A DNA stretch of 64,000 bases from the NCBI GenBank assembly GCA_038874075.1, contig JAVZDD010000003.1:25488-89487 (forward strand), read 5' to 3'. This DNA comes from Candidatus Nanoarchaeia archaeon. GTDB taxonomy: Archaea > Nanobdellota > Nanobdellia > Jingweiarchaeales > Jingweiarchaeaceae. A program made the translations under genes and the position numbers. This document shows, one piece after another, positions 11,001-39,218 of the stretch. Every line of letters starts with the position of its first letter. Position 1 is the first letter of the stretch. The notes beneath the pieces are model-generated. The model saw only the letters and a list, made by a program, of their open reading frames with translations, had not been told where the DNA came from and did no database searches.

Positions 11001-14000
11001 CAGTAGCTAAACTGAACATGTAAAACCAAGTGCCAACATCTTGAGATGTAAAATTCTTGTACCAATACTTTGTTTGATTTATACAATCAGGATAACTACA
11101 ATTCAAAGGTGTTTGATTCACACAATCTGAGCACTCAGTGAAACCAGTCGGAGAACCCTTTGCTAATAATAATTTTACTTCATATGAATCTGTATCTCCA
11201 CTGCTTGATATAATAGAAAAATTCCAATTTTTATAACCCCAGCCTTGTGAGCTTGGAATCACACTTGGATTTTCCAATTTATAAATAGGGAAAAGATAGA
11301 ATAATCCAGGAGAAATTAATCTATAACTCACATTTGAATAGTAATAATTTGCTTCTGCGTACATCGTGGTATTGTACCATCCTTTTGGTGTGGTCACATT
11401 TGTATTCCAATCACAAGTATAAGCATTTGCACCTACTTGGCTTACTGGTGAGCACTCATAACCTGCTGTTGAATGATTCGCATAGAACTTTACATTTGTG
11501 CTTAATGGATCTCCGCAATCATCCGTTGTAGCACCTAAGAAAGGAATTTTTTGCTCCTGCGTATAATTCGTTGACCCATCTGGCTTTTGGAAATCCAAAT
11601 TTATATCTCCAGTTACAAGAATGCTTAAATTGTAGTAATTTTCCGTTGAATTGTCCTCATAGCATGCTTGTCCAGAAATTACAGCTTTCCATTTTTGATT
11701 TCCCACTTGGTATTTCGGAGAACATTTCGCCTGGAAATAGTAATTGGCATATGCGGATGAATTTGTTGTATTGCTCGTACCAACATCGTATATAGATCCA
11801 TCCAATGTTACATAGAAGGTAATCGGTAGATTTGTGATCAAAGTTCCATTTGCGTCTCTCACTCTTAATGCAAGTAATGTGGTCGTCTTTCCTCTTCTTG
11901 TTTCAGTGTTATTACCAATTACATCCTCAAAAATCGTCTTGTCTTTTGTTATCGTGAAAGTTTTCGTCGTTGAGTTCGTTGTTCCTGCATCATTCGTCGC
12001 ATTGAATTTCGCAAATACTGTTGAACCAATATCCTCACAATCTGGATCGAATTCGAATGTGAAATTTGTCCATTGTCCTGTCCCAGAGCCAGGTGCTTGA
12101 TATATCTGACAGTTTCCTACTTGTTTCCATGGTTCACTACCAGTCTTACTGAACCAGGCGCAAACGCTTACATTATTCTCGGAATTACTTACTCTTACAG
12201 TAATATTAAAAGTGAAATTGAATCCCCAAGCACCAGATGAACTTCCTGTTTCATTCGATACAATTGTTGCATTCTCCATTTCAATTGAGGCAGGAGGAGC
12301 TAGCACTTGTACATCTTTACAATTAAAAACAATCGTTGAGTTTTCAGTTGCATTTGCTTTTATGCAAAATGTATAAGTCCCTGGTGTTGTCCCAGATGTG
12401 TTAACAATGTAAGTGTAATCAGTATGTGCATTTCTTGATTGTAACGGACCTATTGTTCCAAGGTAAGTAAGATTACTAATTTCATTTGTGGAATTCCTAA
12501 CTTCAAATTTGCCTGTATAGTTTATCTCAACAATTACATTACTTGCATTGCCAGGACCAGCATTATAAATTGTTGATGAAATGTTGAAAACATCACCAGC
12601 ATATATCGTACTTGGTATTGTCGTTGGCTTTGAAACGTTTAATGAGGCACCACACGAAGCTGAGAAAATGTATGGTTTATTATAGTATATCAATGTTCCA
12701 TTTAAAGGTATTGCTTGGAATCTGAAAGTACCATTTGTTTGATATGTTACATTTAATGTGTAATTGTAATATTTTGAATAAGGCTTTCCATACGGAGATT
12801 GGAAATTTATATTATTGTCCCAGGTTATTTTTACTGAATCGTTTATCGTTGCAGGACTGCCTTCGCTTGACCATGTGTTTTGGAATATCAAATCTTGTGG
12901 ATGCGTTACAGTTAAATTTTCCTTATTTTCAGTAAAGTTGAAATTGCTTCCTGGCTGGTTTCCTTTGTTGAAAACTTGGAATGAAACATTGAAAGTACCG
13001 CACCCGAACGAGCTTGGAAAACCTATGAGCCACTGGGAAGAAGATGCATCATAATAATTTCTAATTGTTTTAATCCAAGGACCAAGAAGCGTTATTGTTC
13101 TCTTGTTTTTTGTCCACCACTCTCCCTTATTCCTTGCTGCTTCACCTAAGAGATTTTGATACCATGGTTTTCCTCCAGGTGCAAATTGAAGAATGCTTCC
13201 TATGGTTGTTTGTATGTTAGAAATCGTCACCAGACCACCTATCGTTGTTGATGTGGTGATGTAACCATTCGTAAATGCACCAAGTCTAGACCATCTAATC
13301 CACCAACCCTCATACATAGAACCTACTGGATAACCTGGATCAGGTGTATATCCACCACTAAAACTATCTCTACTTATATTGAAACCAGGAGGTATCCAAA
13401 GATCAATCACATACACATAACCAGCAGTTGCAGATCCTGTTCTTATCGCATATTGTATTGTTGCCGAGGAGCTCTCTCCAATTTCTGTAATGTTTAGGAA
13501 TGGATCAGGAGAACCGGAATGTCCCGTAGCAGCATTAGCAGAGATAAATGTGTCCGTTTTTGTGATCGTTTGTGAGCTCTGAGTAACGGGATCTACCCAA
13601 ACTACTTCTGTAACAAATTGACCATCTGCACTTGCCTCTTCTGGACCAACCCATTGGATTGTTGCATTGAAGCATGAAGATGTTGGTATTTCTCTATTTA
13701 ACCATTGAACTAGACTTGCAGTTATTGTATTCGCGCTTGGTCCTTCTATAATTGTTGGTGCTGTTGATGGTGATTGGCCAGAAGGATATACAGTAATATT
13801 AACTGTTAAGTTATAATCACCAAAATTACATACACTTAGTCTTTGGTAATTCCTACTACCACTATCACCTGTTCCTCTATTTGGATAAGTGGTAAATATG
13901 ATAAGTGGAGCAAGGTTGCCTTCTTCGGATTGATAAATATCAAATGTTTTTGTATAAGTAAGAGTTGGTCGATTAGTTTGATTTATTTCAACTTTTAAAG

Positions 14001-16404
14001 TATAAGTTTTTTGAGGAATATCCTCTGGAACTTCAAATCTCCAGGTTAAAATACTCTCATTCCAATATGGGATTGTACTCGTTGCTCCAATGGAAAATGG
14101 TTTAGTAGTGTTGTCCCAGAAAAACCAATCTAACTGTGTGTCACCATCCCACAAACTAACTGTAACATTTCCAGAAACACTCGCAGTGGTATTGTAATTC
14201 GCTAGAGGAACCGCGATGAAAGCAATATGTCCTCTTATTATTTTTTGGTCCTCACCAGTAGGAGAATAAATTTTTATATCTCTGACCAGGTTTGCATTTG
14301 TACAGTTTATTACTCTGACCGTAAGGATATTCGTATTTTCTCTGAATGCACCAGGATAAACAGATGAGGTTAACTTGAGCTTATATGTACCTGTTGCTGC
14401 GTCATTTGTGATGTTTAAAAGTCTTGTCTCGAAATAACACGCATCAGCTACACCATTTGTACAAGTTAAAGCAGCGTTACTTAATTCATTAGATACTGAA
14501 TGATCATTTGTATCCCCGCCCCAGTATGTCCAGCCAGCGTACGGTAAATTATTATATGTTGATGCACCTCCTGGAAGAAGTTGCAGTCTGAGAATCTGTG
14601 CTGACGATGCTGAGTCATAGGCAGCATCAACGACCTGTACGCTTACATTATAGTATTCTCCTCTACAAACAGTTAATGTATCCGTTATATTACTTGTGTC
14701 TCTCCATCTCCAAGTCCATTTTACATAATAATAGAAAATTGTATCAACTGCGATACTCCATGGTCTCACTTCTTCAAAGCTCTTAGCTTCTGAATCTTGT
14801 ATATAATCAATGTGTAATGGTCCAACTAAATAGAGCATCGGTGAGATTTGCGGCGTTTTATAAGTATATTCCAGAATTACATTATCAGATGGATTTTCAT
14901 ATTCCCATAAAATGAATTTTCCGCTTTCATTCTGTATTACGATTCCATTGGTTTGTGTTATTATGAAGTCATCCGGTATCGGTTCAATTATTTTAACACT
15001 TGAAGCGTTGAGATATGGTTTAATGTATATTTTCATTTTTGTTGGTGGCTCTGGATATATCACTGTCTCAGATTCCCGAAGTATATCGAACTCAACACTT
15101 TCACGAACCTCAAAGATTGTTTCATAATCAGCATCGACGTCTTCCCAAATAGCTCTTGCATAAATTTTGTAAATACCGATTTCTTCTGGATAATAAGTCA
15201 AGTTATAAGTTCCATCACCATTACTAATTATCCCATCATTTGTTGAGAATTCTTCTATTTTACCAGAAGGTGTTATTATTTTTAATGAAATGGAAGCATC
15301 AGGTACTCGATGACCATATTTATTTAGTACGCCAACTATTATCTTAGTTTCTTCACCTACTAAATAAATCGATTTTGGTGTGTTTATATTTACCAAGCCA
15401 ACGGAAAACTCACTCTCACTTAAAATTTTATCAAGAAGCATTAGTCTCAATTTGTATAAACCTGGTTTGAAATTTCTACTTGTATCTATCAAGAATTCTT
15501 TTCTTAATTCATTAAATCGAATCTGTGTTTCATTTCCTTCTGGATCAATTAGAATTACTCTTAATTTTCCGAGCCATTTTGTTATGTTTTCATTTGTTAA
15601 TATTTCAAAATTTATCTTTTCACCAATTTTAAAGGATTTTTTTGGCAGTTTAATTTCTATACGTTGTTCACCCACTTGTACCTGTTCCTGTTCTAAGATG
15701 CTCTGATTTTTGCTTATTTCTGTTGTTGTATCTTGCCCAGTTGCTAACCCATTCTGCGTTTCACTTAAAGAAATAAAATTTATATGTTCAATCGTAGAGA
15801 AGTTTTCGGTACTTGCAACAAATGTGTATTCACCACTTTCATTCCAATTGGCAGTTATTGTGAAATTGAAAGTATTTTCTGATAGATCCAGTTCTCTTTC
15901 AAACACACTCAAATTACTCGGAGAAATGATCTTTATTTTTATGATTGTTCCATTCGTTTCATTGACAATACCAAAAATAGTGAGATTTTCACCATAACTT
16001 AGATTAAGTTTATCTAAGATCACGATTTCCTGCCCACTTGATGGATTCAAGGCTTCACTAATATTAAGGATGCTGAATCCTGTAATACTTCCATTAAGAA
16101 CGATTAAAGATTCACTGAGCACAATTGCGCCAAAAATTAAAATCAATAAAAATTTTATTTGAGATCTCACCTGGGATTTTGCACTGAGCTTATTACTTTT
16201 GTAATTCATCTGTTCTTTCAAAAACCAAAGATGCCTGCCACTCGTGCTGATTCTATCAATCTTATCTTCTATCTGCATCTCTAGAAGTATTTCATGTACT
16301 CTATGCCAAGATATATTTAATTCCTCAGCAATTTCACCAGTACTTCTAGGGCTACTTCTTTTGAGAAGTTCCAGTATTTTTTCCTTGATTTCTTTATGAT
16401 TCAT
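1..16404 (-). CDS. Giant cell-surface protein, N-terminal 5468 codons (C-terminus lies beyond position 1): cytoplasmic wHTH-like domain, single TM helix, huge repetitive Ig-like ectodomain
   Basis: ATG at 16404-16402 with an in-frame TAG two codons upstream. Minus-strand codons fall on plus-strand triplets starting at positions 1, 4, 7 and so on. I found no tta/cta/tca in that register in any stretch checked by hand (1-660, 1601-1660, 2101-2160, 4721-4780, 5701-5760, 7981-8040, 12181-12360, 15121-15180, 16021-16404). The ORF track lists no complete minus-strand ORF between 714 and 16534, as expected if this frame never reaches a stop in the window. N-terminus: MNHKEIKEKILELLKRSSPRSTGEIAEELNISWHRVHEILLEMQIEDKIDRISTSGRHLWFLKEQMNYKSNKLSAKSQVRSQIKFLLILIFGAIVLSESLIVLNGSITGFSILNISEALNPSSGQEIV. 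Confidence 0.9.
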   Translation of the reverse strand, partial: MNHKEIKEKILELLKRSSPRSTGEIAEELNISWHRVHEILLEMQIEDKIDRISTSGRHLWFLKEQMNYKSNKLSAKSQVRSQIKFLLILIFGAIVLSESLIVLNGSITGFSILNISEALNPSSGQEIVILDKLNLSYGENLTIFGIVNETNGTIIKIKIISPSNLSVFERELDLSENTFNFTITANWNESGEYTFVASTENFSTIEHINFISLSETQNGLATGQDTTTEISKNQSILEQEQVQVGEQRIEIKLPKKSFKIGEKINFEILTNENITKWLGKLRVILIDPEGNETQIRFNELRKEFLIDTSRNFKPGLYKLRLMLLDKILSESEFSVGLVNINTPKSIYLVGEETKIIVGVLNKYGHRVPDASISLKIITPSGKIEEFSTNDGIISNGDGTYNLTYYPEEIGIYKIYARAIWEDVDADYETIFEVRESVEFDILRESETVIYPEPPTKMKIYIKPYLNASSVKIIEPIPDDFIITQTNGIVIQNESGKFILWEYENPSDNVILEYTYKTPQISPMLYLVGPLHIDYIQDSEAKSFEEVRPWSIAVDTIFYYYVKWTWRWRDTSNITDTLTVCRGEYYNVSVQVVDAAYDSASSAQILRLQLLPGGASTYNNLPYAGWTYWGGDTNDHSVSNELSNAALTCTNGVADACYFETRLLNITNDAATGTYKLKLTSSVYPGAFRENTNILTVRVINCTNANLVRDIKIYSPTGEDQKIIRGHIAFIAVPLANYNTTASVSGNVTVSLWDGDTQLDWFFWDNTTKPFSIGATSTIPYWNESILTWRFEVPEDIPQKTYTLKVEINQTNRPTLTYTKTFDIYQSEEGNLAPLIIFTTYPNRGTGDSGSRNYQRLSVCNFGDYNLTVNITVYPSGQSPSTAPTIIEGPSANTITASLVQWLNREIPTSSCFNATIQWVGPEEASADGQFVTEVVWVDPVTQSSQTITKTDTFISANAATGHSGSPDPFLNITEIGESSSATIQYAIRTGSATAGYVYVIDLWIPPGFNISRDSFSGGYTPDPGYPVGSMYEGWWIRWSRLGAFTNGYITTSTTIGGLVTISNIQTTIGSILQFAPGGKPWYQNLLGEAARNKGEWWTKNKRTITLLGPWIKTIRNYYDASSSQWLIGFPSSFGCGTFNVSFQVFNKGNQPGSNFNFTENKENLTVTHPQDLIFQNTWSSEGSPATINDSVKITWDNNINFQSPYGKPYSKYYNYTLNVTYQTNGTFRFQAIPLNGTLIYYNKPYIFSASCGASLNVSKPTTIPSTIYAGDVFNISSTIYNAGPGNASNVIVEINYTGKFEVRNSTNEISNLTYLGTIGPLQSRNAHTDYTYIVNTSGTTPGTYTFCIKANATENSTIVFNCKDVQVLAPPASIEMENATIVSNETGSSSGAWGFNFTFNITVRVSNSENNVSVCAWFSKTGSEPWKQVGNCQIYQAPGSGTGQWTNFTFEFDPDCEDIGSTVFAKFNATNDAGTTNSTTKTFTITKDKTIFEDVIGNNTETRRGKTTTLLALRVRDANGTLITNLPITFYVTLDGSIYDVGTSNTTNSSAYANYYFQAKCSPKYQVGNQKWKAVISGQACYEDNSTENYYNLSILVTGDINLDFQKPDGSTNYTQEQKIPFLGATTDDCGDPLSTNVKFYANHSTAGYECSPVSQVGANAYTCDWNTNVTTPKGWYNTTMYAEANYYYSNVSYRLISPGLFYLFPIYKLENPSVIPSSQGWGYKNWNFSIISSSGDTDSYEVKLLLAKGSPTGFTECSDCVNQTPLNCSYPDCINQTKYWYKNFTSQDVGTWFYMFSLATESTSGYDSFVIKKDNTSIEYVSGNNSYANLTQAATFKVRVKDLIADTYNLTPATTVYFNVSYDGIYNYLVNSTTTDTNGIATVTFTPNCNFNPGAQKWFAWISEDSAYYSNISENFTITIDVTGCEPQPTIVEALSPIEVFQYNNFTINATISSLVSTSNDVYVTLNAPSEWQVDNRTKYIGSIGVGELKKVKWTINATTYGNFSISIYVNNSLGNDDTEYVNPIVWGYKYLGCPNARLTLKGIDVTSKVCSLDGVIGNDFDNESAEAKVDPGESILLEWDCGAIEPRVADIKIFWEALNGTANAVIIGYGKKEWFTVASTQIVTENITMKPLGPLGPDVGLFNNGSCGLQLRNYGPEPLMIDYVNASIYMIERVVVTDVTYLRSDDTVNMVISIKNPFNEWYNDTLLSINITNWDGNVSYYENSTYLNLTPNSLINYTFLVNTLNMPHEMLVVNTTLNFSDGNSTTRFERFYNIPEQVYLTLNPRMCPGTSETLNVELEGIHADENTIINVSVSVPPGWDVSPGYLEYVIFTPEDIKFEFNITSPNNAENATINVSISYLQEFLEFNITKLYQLNVSNANHSVIEVIRETPTRVYPNGVFESALVLHNKGCAPINGNVILKEEIKPGWTPANPNLLGGLNFNSSVDLENNLVIWQIAGFDVNEYGVATYQVKAPTTIGATGNMKWNLNYENVDWDEPHEFHHLQTANYTNESHIEFDLALWQLPDFPWNEPRSLQPNYTYNASLIVRNIGDTQANNWTIYLPIPGICDVTQVWNGSWNSSTRTIEWNLSNLNVRNTTYLNFTINCSSEGGIVLNPYAIKDTRGTINYTDYPNYVCSGASCDKTIYHTLQSPNKNYQRIINGGINFTFNATGENLTISELSIKTETDDNVESLFFERNFFGSIYFEYETIYNLTEDQSWRFRQLQHPLYLHSYATGTYGANTTSNITKIYYTWLYGLLFNETQHLFMKVKEYSYAPLLENATLYVNGNPSLTTGGWGEQFNFSVMVKDRFGRNVTVYAWHKKGVEDYNLIGSWECVNCASWTQANFSYDYSHLNISDNWYFKFNATNVDGSTEIGGYNFKVEKDDIDVINITPSWNENINRSTPYNFTLEIYDRDNQTPATLLEFGKGFIQISQFGSNTTYKTYYPQSPVVNESGYMTQTMTLSDWCPTANNFYLGQNYWKGGAIDSSYYNNNLTEPSPYNALLFWLMGDLSNSTIQSFNQNFTRGQTIAFSGSVIDDCSVTQTDPSKFGLEFRMMQNGNVYGTCITTTGFSCQIETNSSFPYGWYNVTMIAFGKGENGNKYWNGTKNILNAFFLASNISLTNPQVQPHPEGSWEIKPFNFSLIVTSEDNQNVTIMLWLKNTTYNWFLENSTSCVNCNNFDYSYQKNFSCDNIDNWYFKFNASSVTGFSATTSETAFNVTKSAISINYVSGNNSQVNRSDSSENNKVNLTVQIWDLVTNNYTNVIDLSNVHFRVKANGYWLENENEEYKNETHYYREFNPNCSYTPGKKYWNVTVSGASCYKDNQTENFYIEIYGNLLNQIVLPDGSANYTKGENITFRGRVLDDCNQPVTGLESRIEFKIQSGSNVYYCKGVGNVTYDGNGYYNCTWNSSEAISGGWFNVTMNSWNDYYNNGTDLKTNAFFLRTPVVLSAAQVNPNPGGWGETFNFSVTVTHYANVNVCLLEKMTATSNYQITECKYIQNPSNTLVNFTRNYSCSDYQDAALKYYKFNASEPGEPDTYAETTESSHLLEKDDIDIIYIAGNNSQVNRSGTPTKFILFVNDTDAGIPAYNPSYGAAKIWFKVHNGTTYIIPGWNTTNSSGYVEYNFAPNCSYEAGNRNWYAYSSADSCYKDKNSDTFNVVIKGFLTPNVTFPNGQTYQREQYLTINITGDVYDECNLHYFAGANVNFTIKSVAFPGTNYFCDEINDLGNGTYNCTWNATDAVQGWYNVEMNASNINFYNNGSSTKNNAFNIVQVWQPPVLKNETVLPEQDWGWGENFTFKVNVSDANGENVNVSLWISPDNLTWQYVSSQICYDCGTEQELVFYYKGFTCDYIPTAYFKFNASDAHNTTDRAGIDFTLDKDDVVIEYVLGNNSQVNRSESTLLGVRINDTDNKSYVFSGVNVSFWVTFDQSNFDNGGINTTNSDGYVNYGFIPNCSYSVGQQYWKAGTVNNSCYKNVNSTQNYTLTIKGWLNNILIEPNGNTEPGGDNVYQQYSNVTFEANVTDECGIKISNGNVSFNVSRIGYETFACYANNYTDGYYNCTWNSTDLAGGLYDVKMFSYTENYNSNLTTYTNAMFIEVPPNLFGLNVSPSSVPWGVNINFYCNVSDRDDVVNVSLWVKKISDTSFTLKDSQNVTNPINTRVTFTESFSSSQIGEYEWKINVTDKYGQTNESFGGYFNITKRNVYFEYIAGNNTNVSRIGSNVTLLSVKVIDAVEPGRGISGPTGKLYVTTDQSNYILDSTTSAVSNYLNFSFNPSCSYAVNLQYWKIGFESDYYFANNSSAYFVNILSVLNSNITQPNGEVIAVGESLIVNANVSDDCGSVSGATIKQFNVMQDGSSYHTCNANDLGNGNYTCTFDTTGDPLGWYNVSFNVSKNFYNGTFVEKINAFQLRARSQLSGAGAHPSSEGWGYNFTLNVSVQDSDPDDVVNVSLWKAYNQNGPWIYLESKNCTNCLSENTLNFYPVFTCNDLQSGPIVYFKFNSSDNYNLTKTSSIFNITFQKDNVSFIVEQGSGITINREGINYGTFIVLINDTDKGIPVPQGLNGYFNFSYNTTPVWDSDHTNTTDENGRISYYGFDPNCSYSTGMQYWKLTINGGDCYETKEMTSWESYYLYGQLKNNLEKPDSLVYNVSDQIPIRFNVSTDCSDEGLINDVSSITIKLIHNQTGNEYSCTNINNEGNGWYNCTWNSTNKPEGNYSVRIETSRNYYNNNITIYWNRFWLENINPYYSNLIVTPSEGGFGDVYRYNVTIDDPENDTVVCKLYVNTTGEWIYKGSSTVTNGKGNCSITVNDFTCNDYLLQAENSFIFELNDSTNVINTTIASGPILHKDIVNVTYIAGNNTNVNRYGASQQLKLRIYDLNRSQPAINPNGTIWITNDSQNYNFAYVINGDSNGYLTLDFDPNCSYSVGKQYWKGGVTNDACYVEVNSTENYTVNVIGSLFNTVIQPDGEKFLRGDNVTIRANVTDDCNVIIDPVTVNFTTKSLKTNELFICEPVLSEGDGHYNCTFNTSSMPPKAYNLTMKTNKTNYNENITTLTYTTYGSNSFWIETKPELYYPNVTPQIGGWGETFILSVNVSDPDEDTDVVYFYKKQLTDANGNPVSDDWHLIGTSSGSSSTNRTATRTTTFNYQQQGNWSIMFFVNESVYESDVDLGNDTKILNITVEKNDVSIEYIAGNETTFNRVSENTTFILRVIDLDLGQSASGAKTSFWVTTNASDPNSWGPRIPGSDSNSTGHFYLYFPVGVNKCVYNVGKQKWKGGVYNDQKWKDANSSIFNVTITSEFTPKINQPIGPKNNPAFERGVDNIPLSGNLSDDANCGLVPGATVYFSVPSENAFYLATDTGYGNYTATILGGDTWNWNWGWHNLTMNGSKSYYADENSTYENAFYINHRPEFVEGSWSITPGSGEWGTTFTFEIKVKNFDGDNVTVYLWIRKSGGEWQLANQTTYYGPTP
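10560..12260 (-). repeat. Second block of the same module family (about 1.75 copies) in the giant ORF, separated from the main array by about 2.5 kb of non-repeat coding sequence
   Basis: Hand translation gives SSGAWGFNFTFNITVRVSN (about 12230), YFQAKCSPKYQVGNQKWKA (about 11700), SSQGWGYKNWN (about 11250) and VTFTPNCNFNPGAQKWFAW (about 10720). Spacing is again about 980 bp. Confidence 0.7.
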
Positions 16405-16488
16405 TAACTAGACCTTTTGCAGACTATCTGCTATAGGTCATTTTTCATTTTCCGTCCATCGTACGTAAAGTAATCTAAGAATTGGATT

Positions 16489-16504: not shown

Positions 16505-16536
16505 AAGTATTTGTACAAATATTTGTACAAATACTT
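16505..16536. promoter_or_regulatory. Perfect 32-nt palindrome (two tandem TTTGTACAAA cores); operator or terminator hairpin
   Basis: aagtatttgtacaaatatttgtacaaatactt. All 16 base pairs (16505/16536 through 16520/16521) verified as complementary. It overlaps the stop codon of the 727-aa gene and sits about 100 nt upstream of the giant ORF start. Confidence 0.6.
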
Positions 16537-18718
16537 AAGAAGTTTTGTTTACTAAAATTGTGATATTACCTGTATAAACATCAGCTACTTGCCCTGCTGG
16601 AACGAAAAGCCACCAATAAATTGGGATTATACTACCACTTTGTATGTTCTGTTGGAACAATATGAATTGATTCAAGAGTAAATTCATTTTTGAAGCAGGA
16701 TTTGAATTGTTTGCGCATTTTAAATTATTTACACTTATTGAACTTGCGCTTCCAATTAAATCTGTGTCTCCTCTCAGCCAAATCGATGTGTTCACATTTG
16801 ATTCAATGTAAACATTCATTGGAAACCCCTGAATTCCTGTACCACATTCTGTTTTCGAACCATCACTCGCATTTATTTCTATTCCAGTTCCGGTCACGCT
16901 ACCAAAGCAAATCGGATAATTTGAAAGTGTGACGCTTAAGAATTCTTCAACTATATTTACAGTGGTGTAGTCTGTTTTATTTGATTGTACATAGGGACTA
17001 TCAGAAACAAAATTAACATCGAGTTTGTAACTGCTCCCAACATTACCAGTGACATTCACGGTCCATTTTAAGCTGCAAGGTGGACTATTTAAATTTAAAT
17101 TTCCACATTCTTGTGGGTTTGATTCAATCGTATAGAAAGGTATTGCATATACACCGTTCCCCTGTACATTCGTGTCTGGATTTGAGTTTGATGTATTGTA
17201 TCTCAATGTACCATTTACTTTTCCACAAACAGCACCCTGTGGTCCAGCGCAGGTAACATTTGCTATCAATACAAAAGTTTGATTTTGTGCATAATTATTC
17301 GTTCCAGTTGGCGATATTAGTGTCACATTGAGATATCCGACCGGCGGATGGAATGATATTGAATAGGCCTCAAAAGTAGAAACCGTTGTGTCTGCTGTTA
17401 TTATAGAATCACCGTAATTTACATAATTAGTTCCATCAAAACTGAATGAACCAATGTCAAAATTACTATTTAATCTTGCACCGATTATGTTGATAGTATC
17501 ACTATCTGTTGGATTCGTGTATAATGATATCCATGCGCCAGTTCCAGCATAACTTGAAAAAGTAGTTGTGGAAGAAGTACATAGTGGTGAACAGGTTCTT
17601 TGGCTTAGAGTTGTACCAGTCGTATCTGTATCCCAAACCAATCTACCAGTAGAGCCAGATGGGTTCCATGCAAAGTCAGCACATCTTGCTGTTGCCAAAT
17701 CAACTGTTCCATCTATATTGGCTGTTATCGTCCATGAAGAACCATTCCAGTACATGGTATCTAGATCAGAGCCACTGTTGATGGAAACCGCCATTAAATC
17801 ATCACTAGCAGGATCTGCTTTTAATGTAAGCCATCTGGTATCCTGGTTATCCCCAGCATCCAAATCACCGATGTCTGCAACAGTCCAAGTTGAACCATCC
17901 CAATATCGTCCGACTACTGCACCGATAGTGCCAGTCGCGCTTATGACCATGCCCTTACTTCCATCTGATGCGTATTTTACTGCTATGGCTTCATATCCAC
18001 CCGTAGCAGTCGCAGCATCTGTTAATTCTACTCTATTACCCCAAGTGTTTCCGTTCCAAACCCAAGCATTTACATCACTACCCGAGGAATCAAAGCCGAC
18101 TAGTATTATTTCTTCGCTATTACTAACAGGTTTTCTATCTAATTTTACCCAACTATATTGAAGATCACTACCACCATTAGCACTATCATCATCTATACAA
18201 TATTCGACAGATTCTGAAAAGCTTGTTGAAGTTGCTGGCAAAATTTTGTAAGCCAAATCACAATTCACGCTTGTATTTAAAACACCATAAACCACTAATA
18301 AATCCCCAGTCTTTGTTTCGAATTCAATATCAAACCTTCTTGAGTGTGGTGTAGGTGCTGTGCTCCAGACTTGCCCAATGTTATTAGTGATAATCCATGA
18401 ATTTGTGTTGTTACAATTAGAAGTGCAAACATATGCGTCTAAATAACCATCATCACTTTGCGTAACTAAAACAATTTTTTCCGAGACAGGAGAATACTTA
18501 ACTATCACTTCTCTTATAGGTGAACCTGCTGTTGGTAATTCGATTTCACTTCCCCAACTACCAGCATTAGATGAATTCCAAAATCTGATTTTTGGTGAAT
18601 TTAATCCGTAGGTCCCAGTATTTGATCTATAAGCAATAATCGCATCCGTAGCGCTTACTGGTGACAGGGTGAAAGTTAAAATAAAAAAAGATAGCGCGAG
18701 AAGAAATTTTGATTTCAT
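16535..18718 (-). CDS. Secreted 727-aa protein: signal peptide, beta-propeller-like W-x-G-x-x-W repeats, Ig-like domain, C-terminal subunit-like domain shared with the 183-aa and 217-aa proteins
   Basis: ORF track. N-terminus is MKSKFLLALSFFILTFTLSPVSATDA. Recurrent blades end in FWNSSNAGSW, WVWNGNTW, YWDGSTW, YWNGSSW and FAWNPSGS. The C-terminus (EEFLSVTLSNYPICFGS...IYWWLFVPAGQVADVYTGNITILV) aligns by eye with ORFs 22315 and 23621. Confidence 0.85.
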   Translation of the reverse strand: MKSKFLLALSFFILTFTLSPVSATDAIIAYRSNTGTYGLNSPKIRFWNSSNAGSWGSEIELPTAGSPIREVIVKYSPVSEKIVLVTQSDDGYLDAYVCTSNCNNTNSWIITNNIGQVWSTAPTPHSRRFDIEFETKTGDLLVVYGVLNTSVNCDLAYKILPATSTSFSESVEYCIDDDSANGGSDLQYSWVKLDRKPVSNSEEIILVGFDSSGSDVNAWVWNGNTWGNRVELTDAATATGGYEAIAVKYASDGSKGMVISATGTIGAVVGRYWDGSTWTVADIGDLDAGDNQDTRWLTLKADPASDDLMAVSINSGSDLDTMYWNGSSWTITANIDGTVDLATARCADFAWNPSGSTGRLVWDTDTTGTTLSQRTCSPLCTSSTTTFSSYAGTGAWISLYTNPTDSDTINIIGARLNSNFDIGSFSFDGTNYVNYGDSIITADTTVSTFEAYSISFHPPVGYLNVTLISPTGTNNYAQNQTFVLIANVTCAGPQGAVCGKVNGTLRYNTSNSNPDTNVQGNGVYAIPFYTIESNPQECGNLNLNSPPCSLKWTVNVTGNVGSSYKLDVNFVSDSPYVQSNKTDYTTVNIVEEFLSVTLSNYPICFGSVTGTGIEINASDGSKTECGTGIQGFPMNVYIESNVNTSIWLRGDTDLIGSASSISVNNLKCANNSNPASKMNLLLNQFILFQQNIQSGSIIPIYWWLFVPAGQVADVYTGNITILVNKTS

Positions 18719-18724
18719 CTTTGT

Positions 18725-19972
18725 TCACTTGTATATTTTAACATACTTTATAACTCCATTGAAATTATCAAATGTTTGTCCTGTCCATTTGTAGTATCCT
18801 ACATCCGCCCCAATTGAGATTGGAACTTCACTATTAATACTCTTTATTCTTGAAATATCTCCTTGAGCTTCGAGCATGCCGTCAACATACAATAATATAT
18901 CATTTTGATTTAAAAGCACGAATATTTGATGGAATTTTCCATCATTATACGCTTTGTTTGTCTCAATCGATACAGAGTTATCACCATCACCAATATCAAA
19001 TCTTATCGTTCCTTCAGAATTGACTGCTAATACAAAAAACTTCCCATTCAAATAATCATTTCTGGATATAATCGTACCACTTGAATTTGGATATATTTTA
19101 ACATCAGTTTCTATTTTGAAAAAATTATCATTTAAATAGAATTTCTCTGAGTCTTTGATTATTACATAATCTTTCTCTCCGTCGAAATATAGACCTCCAT
19201 CTTTCATCTTGAATTTATCTCCCGACGAATAGTCCCAAGTGAGCACATCTAATTTTGATGGAATGTTTTGGTTAATTGGAGAAATTACCGGTTGGCTGAT
19301 ATACTGATCACTTTGATTTAGTGTTTGCATTTGAATTGGTTCATAACCCAAAAATTTATAATCTATTTTTTCAATTTTAATTGTCATATTTCCATCAAAG
19401 GTTAAAATAAGATCATAAGTACTATCAGTTAAATTTAAAATATCACATATCTCTCCACACATATTTTCAAAATAAAATGTTTCAGGTTCTTCGATCGTGA
19501 AATTGATTTCCTCCGTTACATTTATTGTTTGTGTAATTGTTTCATTTGTTGTCTCATTCACAAATGTGATGTTTTGTTCTCTTGTAACGTTCTCTGTAAC
19601 TATTGTTTGATTTAATTCAAAGTTTTTGGAAAGTATAGTATATATCTTCCCATTATTCTCCAAGTAAATACTTAGGTTACCAGAACTATTTGCGATTACA
19701 TAACCAGAAATTTTTACGGAAGTTAAAGTACAATTTGTTAGGTTGCAAGAATTTTTTAATATCCAATTGTAAATAGTAGGTTCATTTGTTTCAAAATTAA
19801 TCTCATCCACATAGTTCAATTCAACCGGGTTCCATGTTTCGTAGATAAAGAAACCCGTGATTGAACTAATTTCATTGAACCCAATGAATATCACGTAGAG
19901 AGATAGAAATAACAGAACTAAACTTATCAGATTTAGTAATGACCATTTGCTGAAAATTATTTTTTTCCTCAT
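18725..19972 (-). CDS. N-terminally anchored, sequon-rich protein with a C-terminal LamG/concanavalin-A-like lectin domain
   Basis: ORF track. TM segment is LLNLISLVLLFLSLYVIFIGF, followed by SSITGFF. The C-terminal about 170 aa (DGGLYFDGEKDYVII...GKFHQIFVLLNQNDILLYVDG...FNGVIKYVKIYK) match the Laminin_G_3 pattern (F.G.ID.V.IY ending). Confidence 0.8.
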   Translation of the reverse strand: MRKKIIFSKWSLLNLISLVLLFLSLYVIFIGFNEISSITGFFIYETWNPVELNYVDEINFETNEPTIYNWILKNSCNLTNCTLTSVKISGYVIANSSGNLSIYLENNGKIYTILSKNFELNQTIVTENVTREQNITFVNETTNETITQTINVTEEINFTIEEPETFYFENMCGEICDILNLTDSTYDLILTFDGNMTIKIEKIDYKFLGYEPIQMQTLNQSDQYISQPVISPINQNIPSKLDVLTWDYSSGDKFKMKDGGLYFDGEKDYVIIKDSEKFYLNDNFFKIETDVKIYPNSSGTIISRNDYLNGKFFVLAVNSEGTIRFDIGDGDNSVSIETNKAYNDGKFHQIFVLLNQNDILLYVDGMLEAQGDISRIKSINSEVPISIGADVGYYKWTGQTFDNFNGVIKYVKIYK

Positions 19973-20032: not shown

Positions 20033-20794
20033 TTATTCTAGTCTGAGTAAGAATCTAGCAATTTTATCAATTATGCTTCTCTCTTCCTCTTCTATGCCAC
20101 AAAGCTTTTTTGCTAGTTCCTTGAATTTTTTCGAAGAACTTGCATTCGGATTCAGTAAAACAACAGGTATCTTGAAAAATAAACTTCTTGCGACTTCATC
20201 ATCATGTGGTATTACCGACAATATTGGAATATCACACATTTCTTCGATTTCTTCAATTTTCATTCTGTATTTTTTCTTATACATGTTCACAACAAGCCCA
20301 GTCAATTTTACATTGTATTCATTCAACACATCTTTAACTCTCATCACATCAACAACACTCATGAAATTTGGATTTGCTACTAAAAGAACTTCGCTTGAGG
20401 CGAGTAATGTTCCCATCGTTTCTCTTCCGAATCCTGGTGCAGAATCAAGAAGTACGAAGTCTGCCATACCTAATACATCTTTTATCTTTTTCCTTAGGTT
20501 CACGATATCAACACCAATCATGCTGTGCGAGGAAAGAGAAGCAGGAATGATTTTCACACCACTTTTGTGTTCGTATATTGCATCATAGATTTCATATTTT
20601 CCCTTTAACACGTCATTTATCGTAACAGAATAATCATGAATTCCGAAATAGAGCGCCAAATGCGAAGTAGATATATTGCAATCAACAATTATCACTTCCT
20701 TACCCAATTGCGCAAGACATACGGCCAGATTTGCAGTTACTGTCGTCTTACCAACTCCACCCTTTCCAGACATAATTCCAATTACCCTGGTCAT
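20033..20794 (-). CDS. MinD/ParA-family P-loop ATPase (deviant Walker A)
   Basis: MTRVIGIMSGKGGVGKTTVTANLA... carries the KGGxGK[ST] deviant Walker A motif. Length is 253 aa. The start ATG overlaps the TGA of the upstream 469-aa gene (tcat at 20791-20794). Confidence 0.9.
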   Translation of the reverse strand: MTRVIGIMSGKGGVGKTTVTANLAVCLAQLGKEVIIVDCNISTSHLALYFGIHDYSVTINDVLKGKYEIYDAIYEHKSGVKIIPASLSSHSMIGVDIVNLRKKIKDVLGMADFVLLDSAPGFGRETMGTLLASSEVLLVANPNFMSVVDVMRVKDVLNEYNVKLTGLVVNMYKKKYRMKIEEIEEMCDIPILSVIPHDDEVARSLFFKIPVVLLNPNASSSKKFKELAKKLCGIEEEERSIIDKIARFLLRLE

Positions 20795-22200
20795 TTCTCT
20801 TCCTCTCTACTTTCCAATGCCTTTAATCTTTCTTCACATTTTTCCTTTATTTCATCATATGCATTCTTTGATATATTGCCAATTGCATATTCTTTTTCAA
20901 TTATCTTCAATAGTTGTCTGAGTCGCTTTATTTTCTCTTTTGGTGCTGTCTCTTTTTCTTCAGCTATCTTTTCCTTTACGGCCTCCATGAACTTCTTATC
21001 TATTTCTCCCTTCATCTTCTTTACATCGATTTGAGCACCAGGTATTCCTTTCTCCATCGTTCTCAATACTTCTGAACTATAGAAACTCAATATTCTAGCA
21101 AGCCTTTTTTCTGACCATCGATGGTAAATGTAAATCGCAATGATTGGTATTGTGATTAACACGATATAAGAAATGATAATTAATGTATTCATCTTTGCAT
21201 ATTCTGGTAGATATGGTAAATTGTTTATCTGTTCTTCACTTTTTGTCAGCAATTCATCCGCACTTGCAAGCGCAATCAATGCTTGGTCAAATTTTTCCTG
21301 CTCCAAGTACTGCTTGGCAAAATTTAATTGCATCTCAGCCTGTTGTATTAGCAATGAAATTGAAGACGTATTTCTTCCTTCAAATATCGCTGCTTGCATC
21401 TTTAACTTTGCATCATTCAATCTAACTTCAAGTTTCTGCATATCGAACATGGCAAGTTCCTTTGCAGAGGTGAAAACGCGCATTAATGCCTTCTTGACAT
21501 CAAACAAACCTTCTGCTGATGAAACACGCATCGTTATTTCATAATTCTTTGTTGTTGCATTTGGGGGCACATTTATTCTAAAAGAAAACACAAGCTCTGT
21601 GTTTGGTAGTATACGATCGTAAATTTCCGGTGAAATCGTGTACCAATCATTTTCAATACCATCAATTGTGAACGTTAAATTGTGGAGTATTTCATCTCCA
21701 CTGTTCCTCACTTTTAATGTAAAAAGTTTTGACCACCCACGTTCAGCGCTTATCTCAATTGGATATTCAGTGATGTTGAGATTTGTGGTAGTTATGTTTA
21801 CGATTCCCTTTGCAACGTAAAATTGTTTGTTCGTAGATAAATCAGTACTCGTATTGCTGAACTTTAACTTTACCTTTAATAAGTAATTTCCTGGGGGTTG
21901 TATTGAGAAGATGTAAACTTCTCTAGACAAATTAACAAAGGCAGGAGCATCGCTAATATAAACGATTGTTGTTTCCCTTATCCAAGTACCACCATCCATC
22001 GATTCAATCCAATACTCTATTGATGCATCAGCGCCAGGACCACGTGTTTTGTTTATTAAGATATTAAAGGGTAAAAATTCTCCCTGTCTTACAATTGTCT
22101 TATCCAATTCAATACTGACTGTACCTTCCTGAATTTGAGCATTTGAAATAGAAAAAATCAATAGTGGAAGTACGATGAAGATGAAAATCTTTTTTTCCAT
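20791..22200 (-). CDS. Bitopic surface protein: signal peptide, two Ig-like (CARDB/NEW3-like) domains, helical stalk, TM, K/E-rich cytoplasmic tail of about 100 aa
   Basis: ORF track. Signal peptide is MEKKIFIFIVLPLLIFSISNAQ. TM segment is LIIISYIVLITIPIIAIYIY. The tail ends ...KEYAIGNISKNAYDEIKEKCEERLKALESREEEK. Confidence 0.85.
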   Translation of the reverse strand: MEKKIFIFIVLPLLIFSISNAQIQEGTVSIELDKTIVRQGEFLPFNILINKTRGPGADASIEYWIESMDGGTWIRETTIVYISDAPAFVNLSREVYIFSIQPPGNYLLKVKLKFSNTSTDLSTNKQFYVAKGIVNITTTNLNITEYPIEISAERGWSKLFTLKVRNSGDEILHNLTFTIDGIENDWYTISPEIYDRILPNTELVFSFRINVPPNATTKNYEITMRVSSAEGLFDVKKALMRVFTSAKELAMFDMQKLEVRLNDAKLKMQAAIFEGRNTSSISLLIQQAEMQLNFAKQYLEQEKFDQALIALASADELLTKSEEQINNLPYLPEYAKMNTLIIISYIVLITIPIIAIYIYHRWSEKRLARILSFYSSEVLRTMEKGIPGAQIDVKKMKGEIDKKFMEAVKEKIAEEKETAPKEKIKRLRQLLKIIEKEYAIGNISKNAYDEIKEKCEERLKALESREEEK

Positions 22201-22314: not shown

Positions 22315-22866
22315 ATGAACAAAGAATTTGATGCCATGTTAGTAGTAACAATTGCCATCATTGTTTTAGGAGTTTTTTCTGTGATCGCATACAGGGAAAA
22401 CCTTGTTTCTGGAATTGCTTCATTGACCGGTTACGCAACATGGAATCAAACAACTTCCGCGAGTGTTACAGTGAATGAGTACATCTCAGCAACTCTTTCA
22501 AACATACCAATTGATTTCGGTAGCTTAGATCCAGGTACAACAAACCAACCTGCAACGAATAATCCATTATTAGTTCAAGTCGGAGCAGAAACAAATGTTG
22601 AATATAACATCACTTTGAATGGTACCACTAATTTCGTCTCAGGTGGAAATAGTTTCTCTGTAGGAAATCTCTCTTACAACACAACAGAAATTACAACACC
22701 AACACCTTATGAATTAAATGTTGAAAAAAATGCATACACGAATGAACCATGTCCCTGCGGAACACAAGCAGATAGAAACGTCTGGCATTACATTTCTGTG
22801 CCAGCTGGACAAGTAGCTGGAGCGTATTCAGCAAACATAAAAATCACAGTGAAGAAGAGTACGTAA
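22315..22866 (+). CDS. Small N-terminally anchored beta-rich protein, subunit-like paralog 1
   Basis: ORF track. TM segment is MLVVTIAIIVLGVFSVIAY, followed by SLTGYATW. Motifs ISATLSNIPIDFGSLDPG, ETNVEYNITLNG, FSVGNLSYNTT, CPCG and the terminal strand WHYISVPAGQVAGAYSANIKITV are shared with ORF 23621 and with the C-terminus of ORF 16535. Confidence 0.85.
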   Translation: MNKEFDAMLVVTIAIIVLGVFSVIAYRENLVSGIASLTGYATWNQTTSASVTVNEYISATLSNIPIDFGSLDPGTTNQPATNNPLLVQVGAETNVEYNITLNGTTNFVSGGNSFSVGNLSYNTTEITTPTPYELNVEKNAYTNEPCPCGTQADRNVWHYISVPAGQVAGAYSANIKITVKKST

Positions 22867-22904: not shown

Positions 22905-23624
22905 GTGCAAAAAATGACAAGAATAGTTAGCTCTTTAAAAATTGTTTCCATGCTTCTACTCTTTATAATGTTTCTAAACATTTCACACGCACAAAAGTGT
23001 AGTCTTGGAATGACTCCTCTTTCTGCATCTGTGAGAGCGACCCCAGGACAAACTGCGATCATAATTTGGAATTTATATAACATTTATGGTGATAGATTAA
23101 CACATGTAAGTTTGACATACACTTCAGATGTTGATTGGCCTGTTACATTTGATCCAGCGCTTAAAAATGTAACGTATGACATTGCAGGACAAATAGTAAC
23201 TGTTACTGAGAACTTGGCATTGGAACCAAATCCACCAGTAACAGTAAAACCTGAAGTAATTCCACCAGGAACAAACTATGTAAAACATCCATTCACTGAT
23301 GAGTACATTCCTGTAAAGACTGTTAAAATATCAATAAAAATTCCTGAAAATGCTGAGGTTTGGAAGACACATGAATTTACAATATTGGCTGAGGGAAATT
23401 GCTTCACTGCACCTGGTGCAGTTATACCATCACTTTCAACTCCATTGAAAATTACACTTCAAGTGGTTCCAAGAGAATTTTATGAAAAGGCAGTTTTACA
23501 AATACCATGGTACGTCCAATATAGCTATGTGATTATTGCAATCGTGATAATCGTGCTCTTAGGAATAATATATTGGAGTTATAGAAGAGGAAAAAAATTA
23601 ACCCAAAAAGTGAGTAAAAAATGA
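22905..23624 (+). CDS. C-terminally anchored Ig-like surface protein, partner paralog 1
   Basis: ORF track. It has a signal peptide, then AQKC, and a C-terminal TM (YVIIAIVIIVLLGIIYW) followed by RRGKK. It is paralogous to ORF 24264 through shared LYN[IL]YG, THV, IP[VA]K.V...I..P.NAE[VL]WKT and VVP.E[FY]YE[KR]A. Confidence 0.85.
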   Translation: MQKMTRIVSSLKIVSMLLLFIMFLNISHAQKCSLGMTPLSASVRATPGQTAIIIWNLYNIYGDRLTHVSLTYTSDVDWPVTFDPALKNVTYDIAGQIVTVTENLALEPNPPVTVKPEVIPPGTNYVKHPFTDEYIPVKTVKISIKIPENAEVWKTHEFTILAEGNCFTAPGAVIPSLSTPLKITLQVVPREFYEKAVLQIPWYVQYSYVIIAIVIIVLLGIIYWSYRRGKKLTQKVSKK

Positions 23625-24274
23625 AATTTGAAATACCACTAGGACATATCATTGCAATTCTAATAGGATTACTTGTATTTTTTCCTGTGTACAACTACCT
23701 AAGCTTTGGAAGAATAGGAGTCGAAGTTACAGGTTTCGAAGCATTACCAAAAACACAGCAAGCACAAGCAATTCTAAGCATAAATAGATACATCAATACA
23801 GGCATCGATAAAGTACCAATTGATTTTGGTTCTGTAGATCCAGGTTACACATACAATGCAACTCCAAATTCTGGATGGCCTTCAGAATTAATATTATATT
23901 GGGAAACAAACGTTGAAACAAATGTAACATTTTGGGGCACTCAATACTTTTGCAGAAGTAATACAGCCTGTGATGTTGAGCTCGTGAATAGGTTTCAAAT
24001 TGGTAACTTAACGTTCAATACCACAAGCATTAATTTCACGCAGCCAGGGGATGCATGGATGCATTACATTTGGGGAAAGTTTGATAATACAATTCCACAG
24101 AAATCAGTTAATTATACAGAAGCGAATGCTGATTTGATATATAACACAACTTGCCCTTGCGGTGAAGAAAATTATACATTACCAAATTACTTCAGATTGT
24201 CTGTTCCCCCAGGTGTCAGAACAGGAAATTGGAACGCAACCGTCACTTGGAAAGTGATAGATATTGGAACATAA
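23621..24274 (+). CDS. Small N-terminally anchored beta-rich protein, subunit-like paralog 2
   Basis: ORF track. ATGA overlap with the upstream gene. N-terminal hydrophobic segment is HIIAILIGLLVFFPVY, followed by VTGFEAL. Motifs: VPIDFGSVDPG, ETNVETNVTFWG, FQIGNLTFNTT, CPCG and YFRLSVPPGVRTGNWNATVTWKV. Confidence 0.85.
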   Translation: MKFEIPLGHIIAILIGLLVFFPVYNYLSFGRIGVEVTGFEALPKTQQAQAILSINRYINTGIDKVPIDFGSVDPGYTYNATPNSGWPSELILYWETNVETNVTFWGTQYFCRSNTACDVELVNRFQIGNLTFNTTSINFTQPGDAWMHYIWGKFDNTIPQKSVNYTEANADLIYNTTCPCGEENYTLPNYFRLSVPPGVRTGNWNATVTWKVIDIGT

Positions 24275-30604: not shown

Positions 30605-33589
<2,985 letters not shown>

Positions 33590-33829
33590 ATTAGAACATT
33601 AACTGTGTTTGAAACAGCACAGTTTCTGTTCCTTGAATCTTACTTCACGACCTTTTGGTCATGAAGCGCATGATGAACATGAAAATGGATTGGAAATGAT
33701 TGACAACAAATTGAAGCTCACACTAAAATCATCGCAGAAAAATGCTCAATTAGCAGCTAACCATATGCATCACTTCAGTTCATTTATTACGCTTGCATCC
33801 TTTAAAAACTTTTCGTTTTTTACTTAGAA

Positions 33830-37701: not shown

Positions 37702-39218
<1,517 letters not shown>

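Follow-up and report, generated by a model that had tools for sequence, protein, structure and literature searches.

We report that a 727-aa protein of a Candidatus Nanoarchaeia archaeon, encoded on the minus strand of a 64,000-nucleotide stretch of its genome (GenBank assembly GCA_038874075.1, contig JAVZDD010000003.1, positions 25,488 to 89,487; hereafter the window), ends in a domain homologous to two small proteins of 183 and 217 aa encoded close by, and that this domain family, which we call A, recurs in distant lineages beside a membrane-anchored partner, B. We give a probability of about one in two to the reading that the 727-aa protein is a lectin-headed adhesin carried on a fibre or stalk of strand-linked A subunits and tethered by B. 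The case is built on sequence, monomer models and synteny. Homology, domain architecture, fold resemblance, asymmetry of the N-terminal strand, operon conservation and the swapping of heads are shown, while the insertion of strands, polymerisation, the functions of B and the binding of sugar by the head are inferred. It partly supports the design that an earlier note on this DNA had proposed, that of the tip adhesin FimH, as a good working model rather than an established fact. Host recognition and holding by DPANN archaea are largely obscure: filaments have been seen at contact sites, and their proteins have not been identified. The locus described here is a concrete candidate for such attachment, comprising a putative lectin head, a spacer, a pilin-like tail, matching subunits and a membrane anchor, and the system to which it belongs looks like an undescribed and widespread one that mounts interchangeable adhesion heads on a cell-surface fibre or complex. 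The features on which the argument turns are the following (window coordinates, strand, feature, basis).

16535..18718, minus: 727-aa secreted adhesin-like protein, the large "head-A" protein (open reading frame (ORF), homologues, AlphaFold2 (AF2) model)
18650..18718, minus: its Sec-type signal peptide, aa 1-23, predicted cleavage between VSA and TD (read from the sequence; N-terminal helix 2-16 in the model)
17351..18646, minus: its beta-propeller head, aa 25-456, with 7-8 blades (predicted local distance difference test score (pLDDT) >90 in AF2; Foldseek)
16952..17350, minus: its immunoglobulin (Ig)-like spacer domain, aa 457-589 (all-beta in the AF2 model; recurs in other fusions)
16538..16951, minus: its C-terminal A domain, aa 590-727 (BLASTP, alignment, family profile)
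22315..22866, plus: A1, 183-aa stand-alone subunit (alignment, AF2, Foldseek)
22450..22476, plus: candidate donor strand of A1 (N-terminal extension), aa 46-54, TTSASVTVN (conservation in stand-alone subunits)
22905..23624, plus: B1, 239 aa (sequence, family profile, synteny)
23621..24274, plus: A2, 217-aa stand-alone subunit, paralogue of A1, with a VTG/F motif and the N-terminal extension AILSIN (BLASTP, alignment, profile)
24264..24986, plus: B2, 240 aa, paralogue of B1 (B1 versus B2, E=7e-35)

The earlier note had claimed that the last ~140 aa of the large protein are homologous to the 183- and 217-aa proteins, and this was borne out. BLASTP aligned residues 590-727 of the large protein with residues 53-183 of A1 (E=5e-11, 31% identity) and A1 with A2 (E=9e-18); the 727-aa and 217-aa proteins, taken as a pair, gave no significant BLASTP match. 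By profile all three were significant: a family profile built independently from 88 members found elsewhere, with no window sequence among them, matched A1 at 1.3e-43, A2 at 2.6e-20 and residues 582-726 of the large protein at 6.3e-18 (Z=100,000). The four blocks that had been aligned between the three proteins all fall in the same columns of a MAFFT alignment, in which I66, F68, E92, N94, V95, N118, G149, P163 and G165 are invariant. The similarity of the three domains is far beyond chance.

Fold of the A domain and its N-terminal strand

In the AF2 model of A1, residues 55-183 have a pLDDT above 90. When this model was compared with the PDB by Foldseek (probability ~1.0), ranks 1-37 were all taken by subunits of donor-strand filaments, including FimG, FimA, CS20, Caf1, PapA, CsuA/B, CfaB, SafA and the pilin domains of PapG and CsuE. 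Tubular structures were also listed, the archaeal cannulae of Pyrodictium at rank 6 and the Hyper2 tube at rank 15, and the bundling pilus AbpA of Pyrobaculum followed at rank 43. The weight of this match comes from the uniformity of the hits, single scores being modest.

A fibre polymerised from the small proteins and capped by fused copies would need a donor strand in the small proteins only. We aligned 160 family members to the profile and found such an asymmetry. In ~100 stand-alone subunits the stretch that leads directly into the first core strand, A49-x-V51-x-V53-N, is conserved above most of the core (A49 in 93%, V51 in 87% and V53 in 81%), and the motif A-x-[VI]-x-[VI] occurs in 78 of 102 stand-alone subunits vs 2 of 42 C-terminal fused copies (Fisher p=2e-16). 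Predicted signal cleavage falls 5-9 residues before the strand, which is present in A1 (ASVTVN), whose layout is an N-terminal transmembrane (TM) or signal helix, an LTG/Y motif, the conserved strand S48-ASVTVNEYIS-58 and a beta-sandwich, and in A2 (AILSIN); the 727-aa protein is without it, the matching stretch, TVNIVE, being the last strand of its Ig spacer. A strand kept in stand-alone proteins and absent from fused copies is the distinction between FimA/PapA and FimH/PapG, and the family alignment supports the view that the same distinction applies here. In addition, the conserved N-terminal segment is not paired with a sheet in the monomer model of A1, and 6 of the 160 proteins are A-A tandem fusions, which hints at a head-to-tail contact between A domains. 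Strand asymmetry, tandems and the unpaired segment of the model together fit strand complementation between A domains, and fall short of proof.

The family itself is large and nameless. A profile search covering 1.84 billion representatives of clusters at 50% identity returned 1,116 proteins at E<=1e-3, of which 418 reached E<=1e-10; ten of the clusters were looked up, and these were unnamed or labelled no more than "hypothetical protein". Two architectures were found: stand-alone proteins of 150-220 aa with a signal peptide, and long proteins of 260-3,552 aa that bear the domain at their extreme C-terminus (44/44 fusions) behind very diverse heads, among them propellers and subtilase-like domains. 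A Pfam scan of 92 members matched 55 families at E<=1. The sub-threshold matches included DUF4402 (24/92; best E 4.5e-5, with A1 of the window at 18.0 bits against a cut-off of 25.2), GH123_N (23/92) and SCPU (4/92, at 0.08 or weaker), the last of which we take to be the profile of subunits of archaic chaperone-usher pili; two members had weak WxLIP_PGBD matches. With DUF4402 also below threshold, the family lies outside the Fimbrial, SCPU and DUF4402 profiles. Against PDB chains the A profile reached 5l7v, 8k2h and 5fqg, of the GH123 N-terminal sandwich type, at 0.015-0.04, and sequence searches of PDB chains with the 727-aa protein, A1 and the A and B profiles gave nothing meaningful. In the literature we found nothing on the A family and no paper mentioning DUF4402 or PF14352; donor strands were linked to DPANN in a 2018 review, and we did not find this link beyond it. 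An origin of A1 and A2 from type IV pilins was considered and rejected: their hydrophobic helix precedes TG[FY], where a type IV pilin would have it after a class III cleavage site; the Sec signals of most family members are of the ordinary A-x-A kind; and just two weak Pilin_N matches were seen.

Head, exchange of heads and the conserved operon

The 727-aa protein begins with the signal peptide that the earlier note had seen; it is of Sec type, MKSKFLLALSFFILTFTLSPVSA followed by TD. The W-rich blade motifs it had pointed to, of the pattern W-x-G/N-x-x-W, lie at residues 47 (WNSSNAGSW), 219 (WVWNGNTW), 273 (WDGSTW) and 324 (WNGSSW). In the AF2 model (overall pLDDT 83), residues 25-456 form a beta-propeller with pLDDT >90. 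The proposed propeller was thus upheld. Its blades, which the note had put at about seven, came to eight four-stranded ones when counted from the strand list, the ring being closed by the two terminal strands. The Ig-like domain expected after the head was recovered as an all-beta domain at residues 461-588, and residues 594-727 form a third beta domain. The protein has no TM helix and carries 16 N-glycosylation sequons; per 100 aa, the cluster's surface proteins have 2-5 sequons and cytoplasmic proteins 0-0.5. Judged from these features, it is most likely secreted and N-glycosylated, with the C-terminal A domain as its sole means of retention at the cell.

By fold, the head model supports a lectin- or integrin-like identity. 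Foldseek matched it to integrin alphaV (3e-11), which has a propeller followed by Ig legs, and to the seven-bladed fucose lectins PLL/PHL of Photorhabdus (TM-score normalised to the target 0.61-0.66), with the lectins AAL, AFL and RSL also matched. The head shares with these proteins a W-rich, multi-bladed propeller and, as in integrin alpha, Ig-like "legs" after it; it differs from PLL/PHL in its length of ~430 aa and its eight counted blades instead of seven, and a sequence search of PDB chains found no match to it. Together with the adjacent gene for a LamG-domain protein, these fold matches point to glycan recognition, a glycan being the candidate ligand.

Among homologues, the propeller head is a widespread module joined to varied C-termini. 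The Ig-like spacer also precedes an A domain elsewhere, in P0003 and P0005 (58-60% identity), in P0149 and P0155 (38-40%) and in a 1452-aa protein of locus L011. Head and tail have different closest relatives. The head of the 727-aa protein is 50-66% identical to those of a group of Micrarchaeota and Woesearchaeota proteins (P0002, P0005, P0006, P0007 and P0008), and its A domain is just 21-36% identical to the A domains of these head-sharing proteins; with the tails of P0149 and P0155, whose heads are unrelated and whose genes belong to A/B clusters of Nanobdellota type (L014 and L013), the same A domain shares 62-64% identity. This pattern indicates that heads have been exchanged between lineages and that the tail has varied in step with the subunits and anchor of the local system. 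A tail matched to the local system is what is expected of an assembly or attachment module, as a pilin domain must be. Indeed, relatives without a 727-type gene carry other head-A fusions beside their A/B genes:

L013, 5741-7687, minus: head-A fusion of 645 aa (P0155), beside A/B genes
L014, 9236-10573, minus: head-A fusion of 544 aa (P0149), beside A/B genes
L003, 8341-9963, plus: head-A fusion of 540 aa, beside A/B genes

The tails of these fusions are 62-64% identical to that of the 727-aa protein and their heads vary, which shows replacement of heads on a constant tail.

The partner, B1, consists of a signal peptide, one NEW3-like beta-sandwich with a conserved Cys pair and an EFYE motif, a C-terminal TM helix and a basic tail, and is a candidate membrane anchor or chaperone for A. 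Its family had weak NEW3 matches only in Pfam, with DUF916 and DUF3324 unmatched. We scanned six-frame translations of 31 loci with the A and B profiles, 20 distinct loci having enough flanking DNA. The recurrent operon comprises a small A, a head-A fusion and B, with B adjoining A genes in 18 of these 20 loci, and it spans distant lineages, including a high-GC locus with two-component genes of bacterial type (L007), whose B matches B1 at 4e-16. Pairing is strict for A1-B1 and A2-B2, and two A domains per B are common. A larger set, A1-B1-A2-B2 with C657, D538, E469, a MinD-type ATPase and a giant gene (see below), is conserved in Nanobdellota-type relatives, with or without a head-A gene. MinD, C657, D538 and E469 were rejected as universal parts of the A/B system, their co-occurrence being limited to these relatives. 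We also rejected B as a lipoprotein: its N-terminal Cys, right after the signal cleavage site, is outside a lipobox and goes together with a second conserved Cys in G-x-C-F. Both cysteines are absent together in L005 and L007, and this joint loss makes a disulfide more likely. B1 and B2 have 0.8 sequons per 100 aa, far below the other surface proteins.

Known systems and competing models

In the model that we favour, the 727-aa protein would be exported by Sec and glycosylated. The body of each A domain would be an Ig-like sandwich completed by a beta-strand of a partner, so that the N-terminal A-x-V-x-V strand of A1 or A2 could insert into the A domain of the adhesin and capture it. Further subunits would then be added head-to-tail until a short fibre or stalk carried the lectin head at its distal end; at the membrane, the single-pass proteins B1 and B2 would tether the base and hold or cap subunits. 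Assembly would proceed without an usher or a PapD-type chaperone. A broader proposal, which we advance tentatively and at less than even odds, is that A and B constitute a donor-strand pilus system of this kind wherever they occur, in DPANN (Nanobdellota, Micrarchaeota, Aenigmatarchaeota), in other archaea and in single-membrane bacteria, with B as a single-domain, membrane-anchored chaperone or anchor and an acquired C-terminal A domain making a protein the fibre tip. If so, the A/B family would bridge chaperone-usher pilins, WxL clusters and the Pam pili of the Candidate Phyla Radiation (CPR), and the system would be a device with which ultrasmall archaea display and swap host-recognition lectins. 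Strand complementation, if true, would also place donor-strand assembly with tip adhesins in archaea, beyond the TasA superfamily, and would offer a mechanistic reading for the parallel and poorly understood WxL clusters of Gram-positive bacteria.

Each element of this model has a precedent, and in sequence and component tests the A family fell outside the chaperone-usher, WxL and TasA groups. A lectin head with a pilin-like tail and matching subunits is already found in chaperone-usher pili, and the gene triad in WxL clusters; Pam pili have membrane-anchored helpers, and archaeal N-terminal donor strands occur in the TasA superfamily. The Pam pili and the Mth60 fimbrin of Methanothermobacter entered the comparison by description alone. 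Like the 727-aa protein, the chaperone-usher tip adhesins FimH, PapG and CsuE join an N-terminal receptor-binding head to a C-terminal copy of the subunit, and like A1 and A2, the pilins FimA/G, PapA and CsuA/B have an N-terminal extension that the adhesin lacks. These pilins are the best PDB fold matches of A and are linked to it by the sub-threshold DUF4402 and SCPU profiles. Unlike them, the A/B system belongs to an archaeal host without an outer membrane, has neither usher nor PapD-like chaperone, has a single-domain, TM-anchored, NEW3-like partner and places an Ig spacer between the head and the pilin-like domain. The tip-adhesin design of the earlier note, of FimH/PapG type, therefore stands in its shared domain, head fold, pilin-type fold matches, strand asymmetry and recurrent operon; chaperone-usher machinery was not found in scans of the cluster, and the A/B system is not a member of the chaperone-usher family.

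The WxL clusters of Lactobacillales and Bacillales comprise small WxL proteins that are the domain alone, large ones with a C-terminal WxL domain behind host-binding heads, and WxLIP proteins (DUF916-DUF3324-TM); the commonest cluster has two WxL genes and one WxLIP gene, and in AF2 predictions a gap of the WxL sandwich is closed by a strand from WxLIP (PMC9772566, PMC10599100). WxL domains bind peptidoglycan, and no fibre is known or proposed for them (PMC9772566, PMC10599100). The A/B system has the same three parts in the same ratio and likewise an Ig-like partner with a C-terminal TM helix. A has no PF13731 match, A1 has no W-x-L, the tail of the 727-aa protein has one fortuitous WWL and B matches neither DUF916 nor DUF3324, so WxL is, by analogy, a functional parallel and not a matter of membership.

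The closest functional precedent in a single-membrane, ultrasmall organism is the Pam pilus of CPR bacteria. Its pilins have two Ig-like domains, undergo donor-strand exchange and are reported to be exclusive to CPR; the accessory proteins with a C-terminal TM helix are the chaperones PamC and PamD, two-domain proteins like PapD and FimC, and the terminator PamR; the tip pilin is without a linker strand, and there is no trans-envelope machine (bioRxiv 10.64898/2026.03.03.709456). Pam pili thus resemble the A/B system as products of an ultrasmall episymbiont with a single membrane and TM-anchored helpers. Each of B1, B2, C657 and D538 combines a signal peptide with a C-terminal TM helix, and none is PapD-like. 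Compared by description, the two systems differ in that A is single-domain and no lectin-head fusion has been described for Pam. Finally, the archaeal filaments of the TasA superfamily (AbpA bundling pili, Saci_0406 threads and CanA cannulae) assemble without chaperones through an N-terminal donor strand right after the cleavage site (PMC12518558, PMC9715654). They share with A an archaeal setting, a Sec signal and a donor-type strand following cleavage: most A family members have A-x-A cleavage, then 5-9 residues and then the conserved strand. They are jelly-roll folds linked to Peptidase_M73 profiles, and no head-fused tip adhesins or B-like partners have been described for them. Peptidase_M73/TasA is not among the 25 families listed of the 55 matched by the 92 A members, so at most one member can match it, and by sequence A did not match 7UEG, 7PNB or 9H8B. 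The jelly-roll structures (cannulae, Hyper2, AbpA) are in the Foldseek list of A1, below the chaperone-usher pilins.

Several results weigh against a strand-linked fibre with an adhesin at its tip. Profile searches gave no above-threshold match of A to Fimbrial, SCPU, TasA/Peptidase_M73 or any PDB chain, and the strongest C-terminal motif of the family, P-x-G-Q-x-A-G-x-Y, is also typical of complete NEW3, CARDB and GH123-N sandwiches. The model of A1 was made from an alignment of 14 sequences, three of its five versions were poor, and its Foldseek scores were modest (E ~1e-3, TM-score 0.4-0.5, or 0.45-0.52 when normalised to the target). Pfam and NCBIfam scans of the cluster proteins found no PapD-like chaperone or usher, and B has a single NEW3-like domain and not the two of a PapD-like chaperone. 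The close relatives L001 and L002 have the A/B/C/D/E/MinD/giant cluster without any 727-type gene, so that the adhesin is accessory. Finally, given the strict A-B pairing and the common 2:1 ratio of A to B, a fixed heteromeric complex is no worse a fit than a polymer.

Such a fixed complex, a platform like that of WxL clusters, is the main rival reading and a serious one, though less probable than the fibre. Small A, head-A and B, perhaps with C657 and D538, would form a heteromer in which a strand of B completes the A sandwich and the TM helix of B tethers the head, with no polymer. The identical three-part gene logic, the frequent operons with two A domains per B and the strict pairing of A1-B1 and A2-B2 all speak for it, as do the near-threshold WxLIP_HBD match of D538, the WxLIP_PGBD match of a D538 homologue (7e-5) and the weak ones of two A members. 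On the other hand, A has neither a WxL Pfam match nor the dual W-x-L motif, B is without DUF916 and DUF3324, and peptidoglycan, to which WxL domains bind, is absent from the archaeal host, which has no murein. A platform alone also leaves unexplained why the N-terminal strand is restricted to stand-alone subunits and why the best fold matches are polymerising pilins.

Two further readings seem improbable to us. The A domain could be a complete sandwich, like a carbohydrate-binding module, that binds carbohydrate or the S-layer, with the small A proteins as free lectins or competitors and B as a mere neighbour. The weak similarity of its C-terminal half to the GH123 N-terminal sandwich (23/92 members; PDB matches at 0.015-0.04), its NEW3/CARDB motifs and its invariably C-terminal position, as in many wall-binding modules, are in keeping with this; the near-obligate adjacency of B (18/20 loci), the strand asymmetry, the A-A tandems and the way in which the A domain tracks the local A/B system are left unexplained, and GH123 ranked below all pilins in Foldseek. 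Just as improbable is a role of the A-E proteins, together with the MinD-like ATPase and the giant protein, in building or positioning a coat of S-layer type or an organelle at the contact site; the 727-aa protein would then be one more coat component, with a common lattice-forming domain. In Nanobdellota relatives the core cluster is kept with a ~5,400-aa protein and a MinD-type ATPase even where a 727-type gene is missing; moreover, the S-layer protein has so far been determined in no DPANN archaeon, and filaments occur at Nanobdella-host contact sites. Yet the A-plus-B operon occurs alone, without a MinD or giant gene, in many other loci, from which it follows that the A/B module has a function of its own.

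Gene row and other features of the window

The window comes from an archaeon of low GC content (~35%) and contains archaeal large-subunit (LSU) and small-subunit (SSU) rRNA genes and an RNase P RNA gene. Its surface genes have their closest relatives in Nanobdellota/"Nanoarchaeota" metagenome-assembled genomes, such as that of Ca. Haiyanarchaeum thermophilum, which makes the host an archaeon of DPANN type. The surface genes form two divergent rows, E469, the MinD/ParA-type ATPase, LamG415, the 727-aa gene and the giant ORF on the minus strand and A1, B1, A2, B2, C657 and D538 on the plus strand. An NCBIfam scan found no family for any surface protein of the cluster. The members not listed above are:

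24973..26946, plus: C657, with signal peptide, beta-sandwich domains, Pro/Gly-rich linker, coiled coil and C-terminal TM helix (conserved cluster member in Nanobdellota-type relatives)
26943..28559, plus: D538, with signal peptide, Ig-like domains and C-terminal TM helix (conserved in relatives)
20791..22200, minus: E469, with signal peptide, NEW3 domain, TM helix and cytoplasmic coiled-coil tail of ~110 aa (Pfam; conserved in relatives)
20033..20794, minus: MinD/ParA-type P-loop ATPase (Pfam ParA 2.6e-23, CbiA 8e-22)
18725..19972, minus: LamG415, with N-terminal TM helix, ITG/F motif and C-terminal LamG/ConA-like lectin domain (Pfam Laminin_G_3 1.2e-11)
1..16407, minus: giant surface-protein ORF of >5,469 aa, directly downstream of the 727-aa gene, 3' end beyond the window (ORF; homologues of 5,418-5,492 aa beside MinD in relatives)

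D538 matched WxLIP_HBD (PF11797) at E=6.9e-6 and 26.5 bits, below the cut-off of 28.9, and the WxLIP_PGBD match of one homologue was at 7.3e-5. The MinD-like gene and E469 overlap by 4 bp and are translationally coupled. In relatives the MinD-like gene adjoins E469 and the giant gene, and in L005 it adjoins the LamG-702 pair. A ParA gene is also present in this Micrarchaeota locus, and the E469/MinD pair is kept with A/B genes in Nanobdellota relatives; the ATPase and E469 may position the surface structure. A gene of the LamG415 type always lies directly upstream of the 727-type gene. The same pair is found in L005 and L006, and in Micrarchaeota loci it recurs beside ParA, B, NEW3 or small-A genes.

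The giant ORF contains 291 N-glycosylation sequons and scattered matches to Big_1, NEW3, Filamin and Big_7. No internal A domain was found in it; in the search for one at its C-terminus, a metagenome scan with its last 400 visible residues gave nothing, nor did BLAST against other long A-domain proteins, the true 3' end lying beyond the window. Its first ~65 codons (16200-16404, minus) encode a winged helix-turn-helix (HTH), with a Pfam FaeA-like match at 22.7 bits, above the cut-off of 20.7, and a match to HTH_24, in frame and directly upstream of the TM helix and ITGF motif of the giant ORF. This is either a cytoplasmic DNA-binding domain on a giant surface protein or a separate small gene without an intervening stop.

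Four proteins of the cluster have in common a TM helix, a spacer of ~10 residues with charged residues and the motif [ILV]-T-G-[FY]:

A1, aa 36-40 (22420-22434, plus): [ILV]-T-G-[FY] site
A2, aa 35-39: [ILV]-T-G-[FY] site
LamG415, aa 36-41: [ILV]-T-G-[FY] site
Giant ORF, aa ~105-112: [ILV]-T-G-[FY] site

The motif is also seen in DPANN homologues (P0113-P0119, P0131, P0142, P0248 and in L006). Ordinary Sec signals are found instead in the 727-aa protein, B1/B2, C657, D538 and E469, and outside DPANN the family has A-x-A sites equally far from the conserved strand. To judge by this distribution, [ILV]-T-G-[FY] may be a lineage-specific cleavage or sorting signal.

Elsewhere in the window, a 1,097-aa secreted protein (40397-43690, minus) has MG2 and Big_13 matches, a charged coiled-coil C-terminus and a layout like that of E469 and C657, and may be a further surface protein of their kind, with a cytoplasmic tail. 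Next to it, at 43743-45883, are three adjacent ATPase paralogues of the KaiC/RecA superfamily (243, 227 and 229 aa) in alternating orientation, the first of which matches Pfam KaiC at 1e-63. The rRNA genes (30612-39218, minus) are unlinked, with LSU (30612-33582) and SSU (37702-39218) ~4 kb apart and a class I aminoacyl-tRNA synthetase gene (33830-36172), tRNA-Ala and a gene for a 284-aa membrane protein between them. Their GC content is 47-49% vs 35% for the genome, and a 159-aa ORF inside the SSU gene (37798-38277) is spurious. Finally, tRNA-Leu(aag) (52531-52629, minus) is 99 nt long vs 86 nt for the other tRNA-Leu, and this extra length makes an intron probable.

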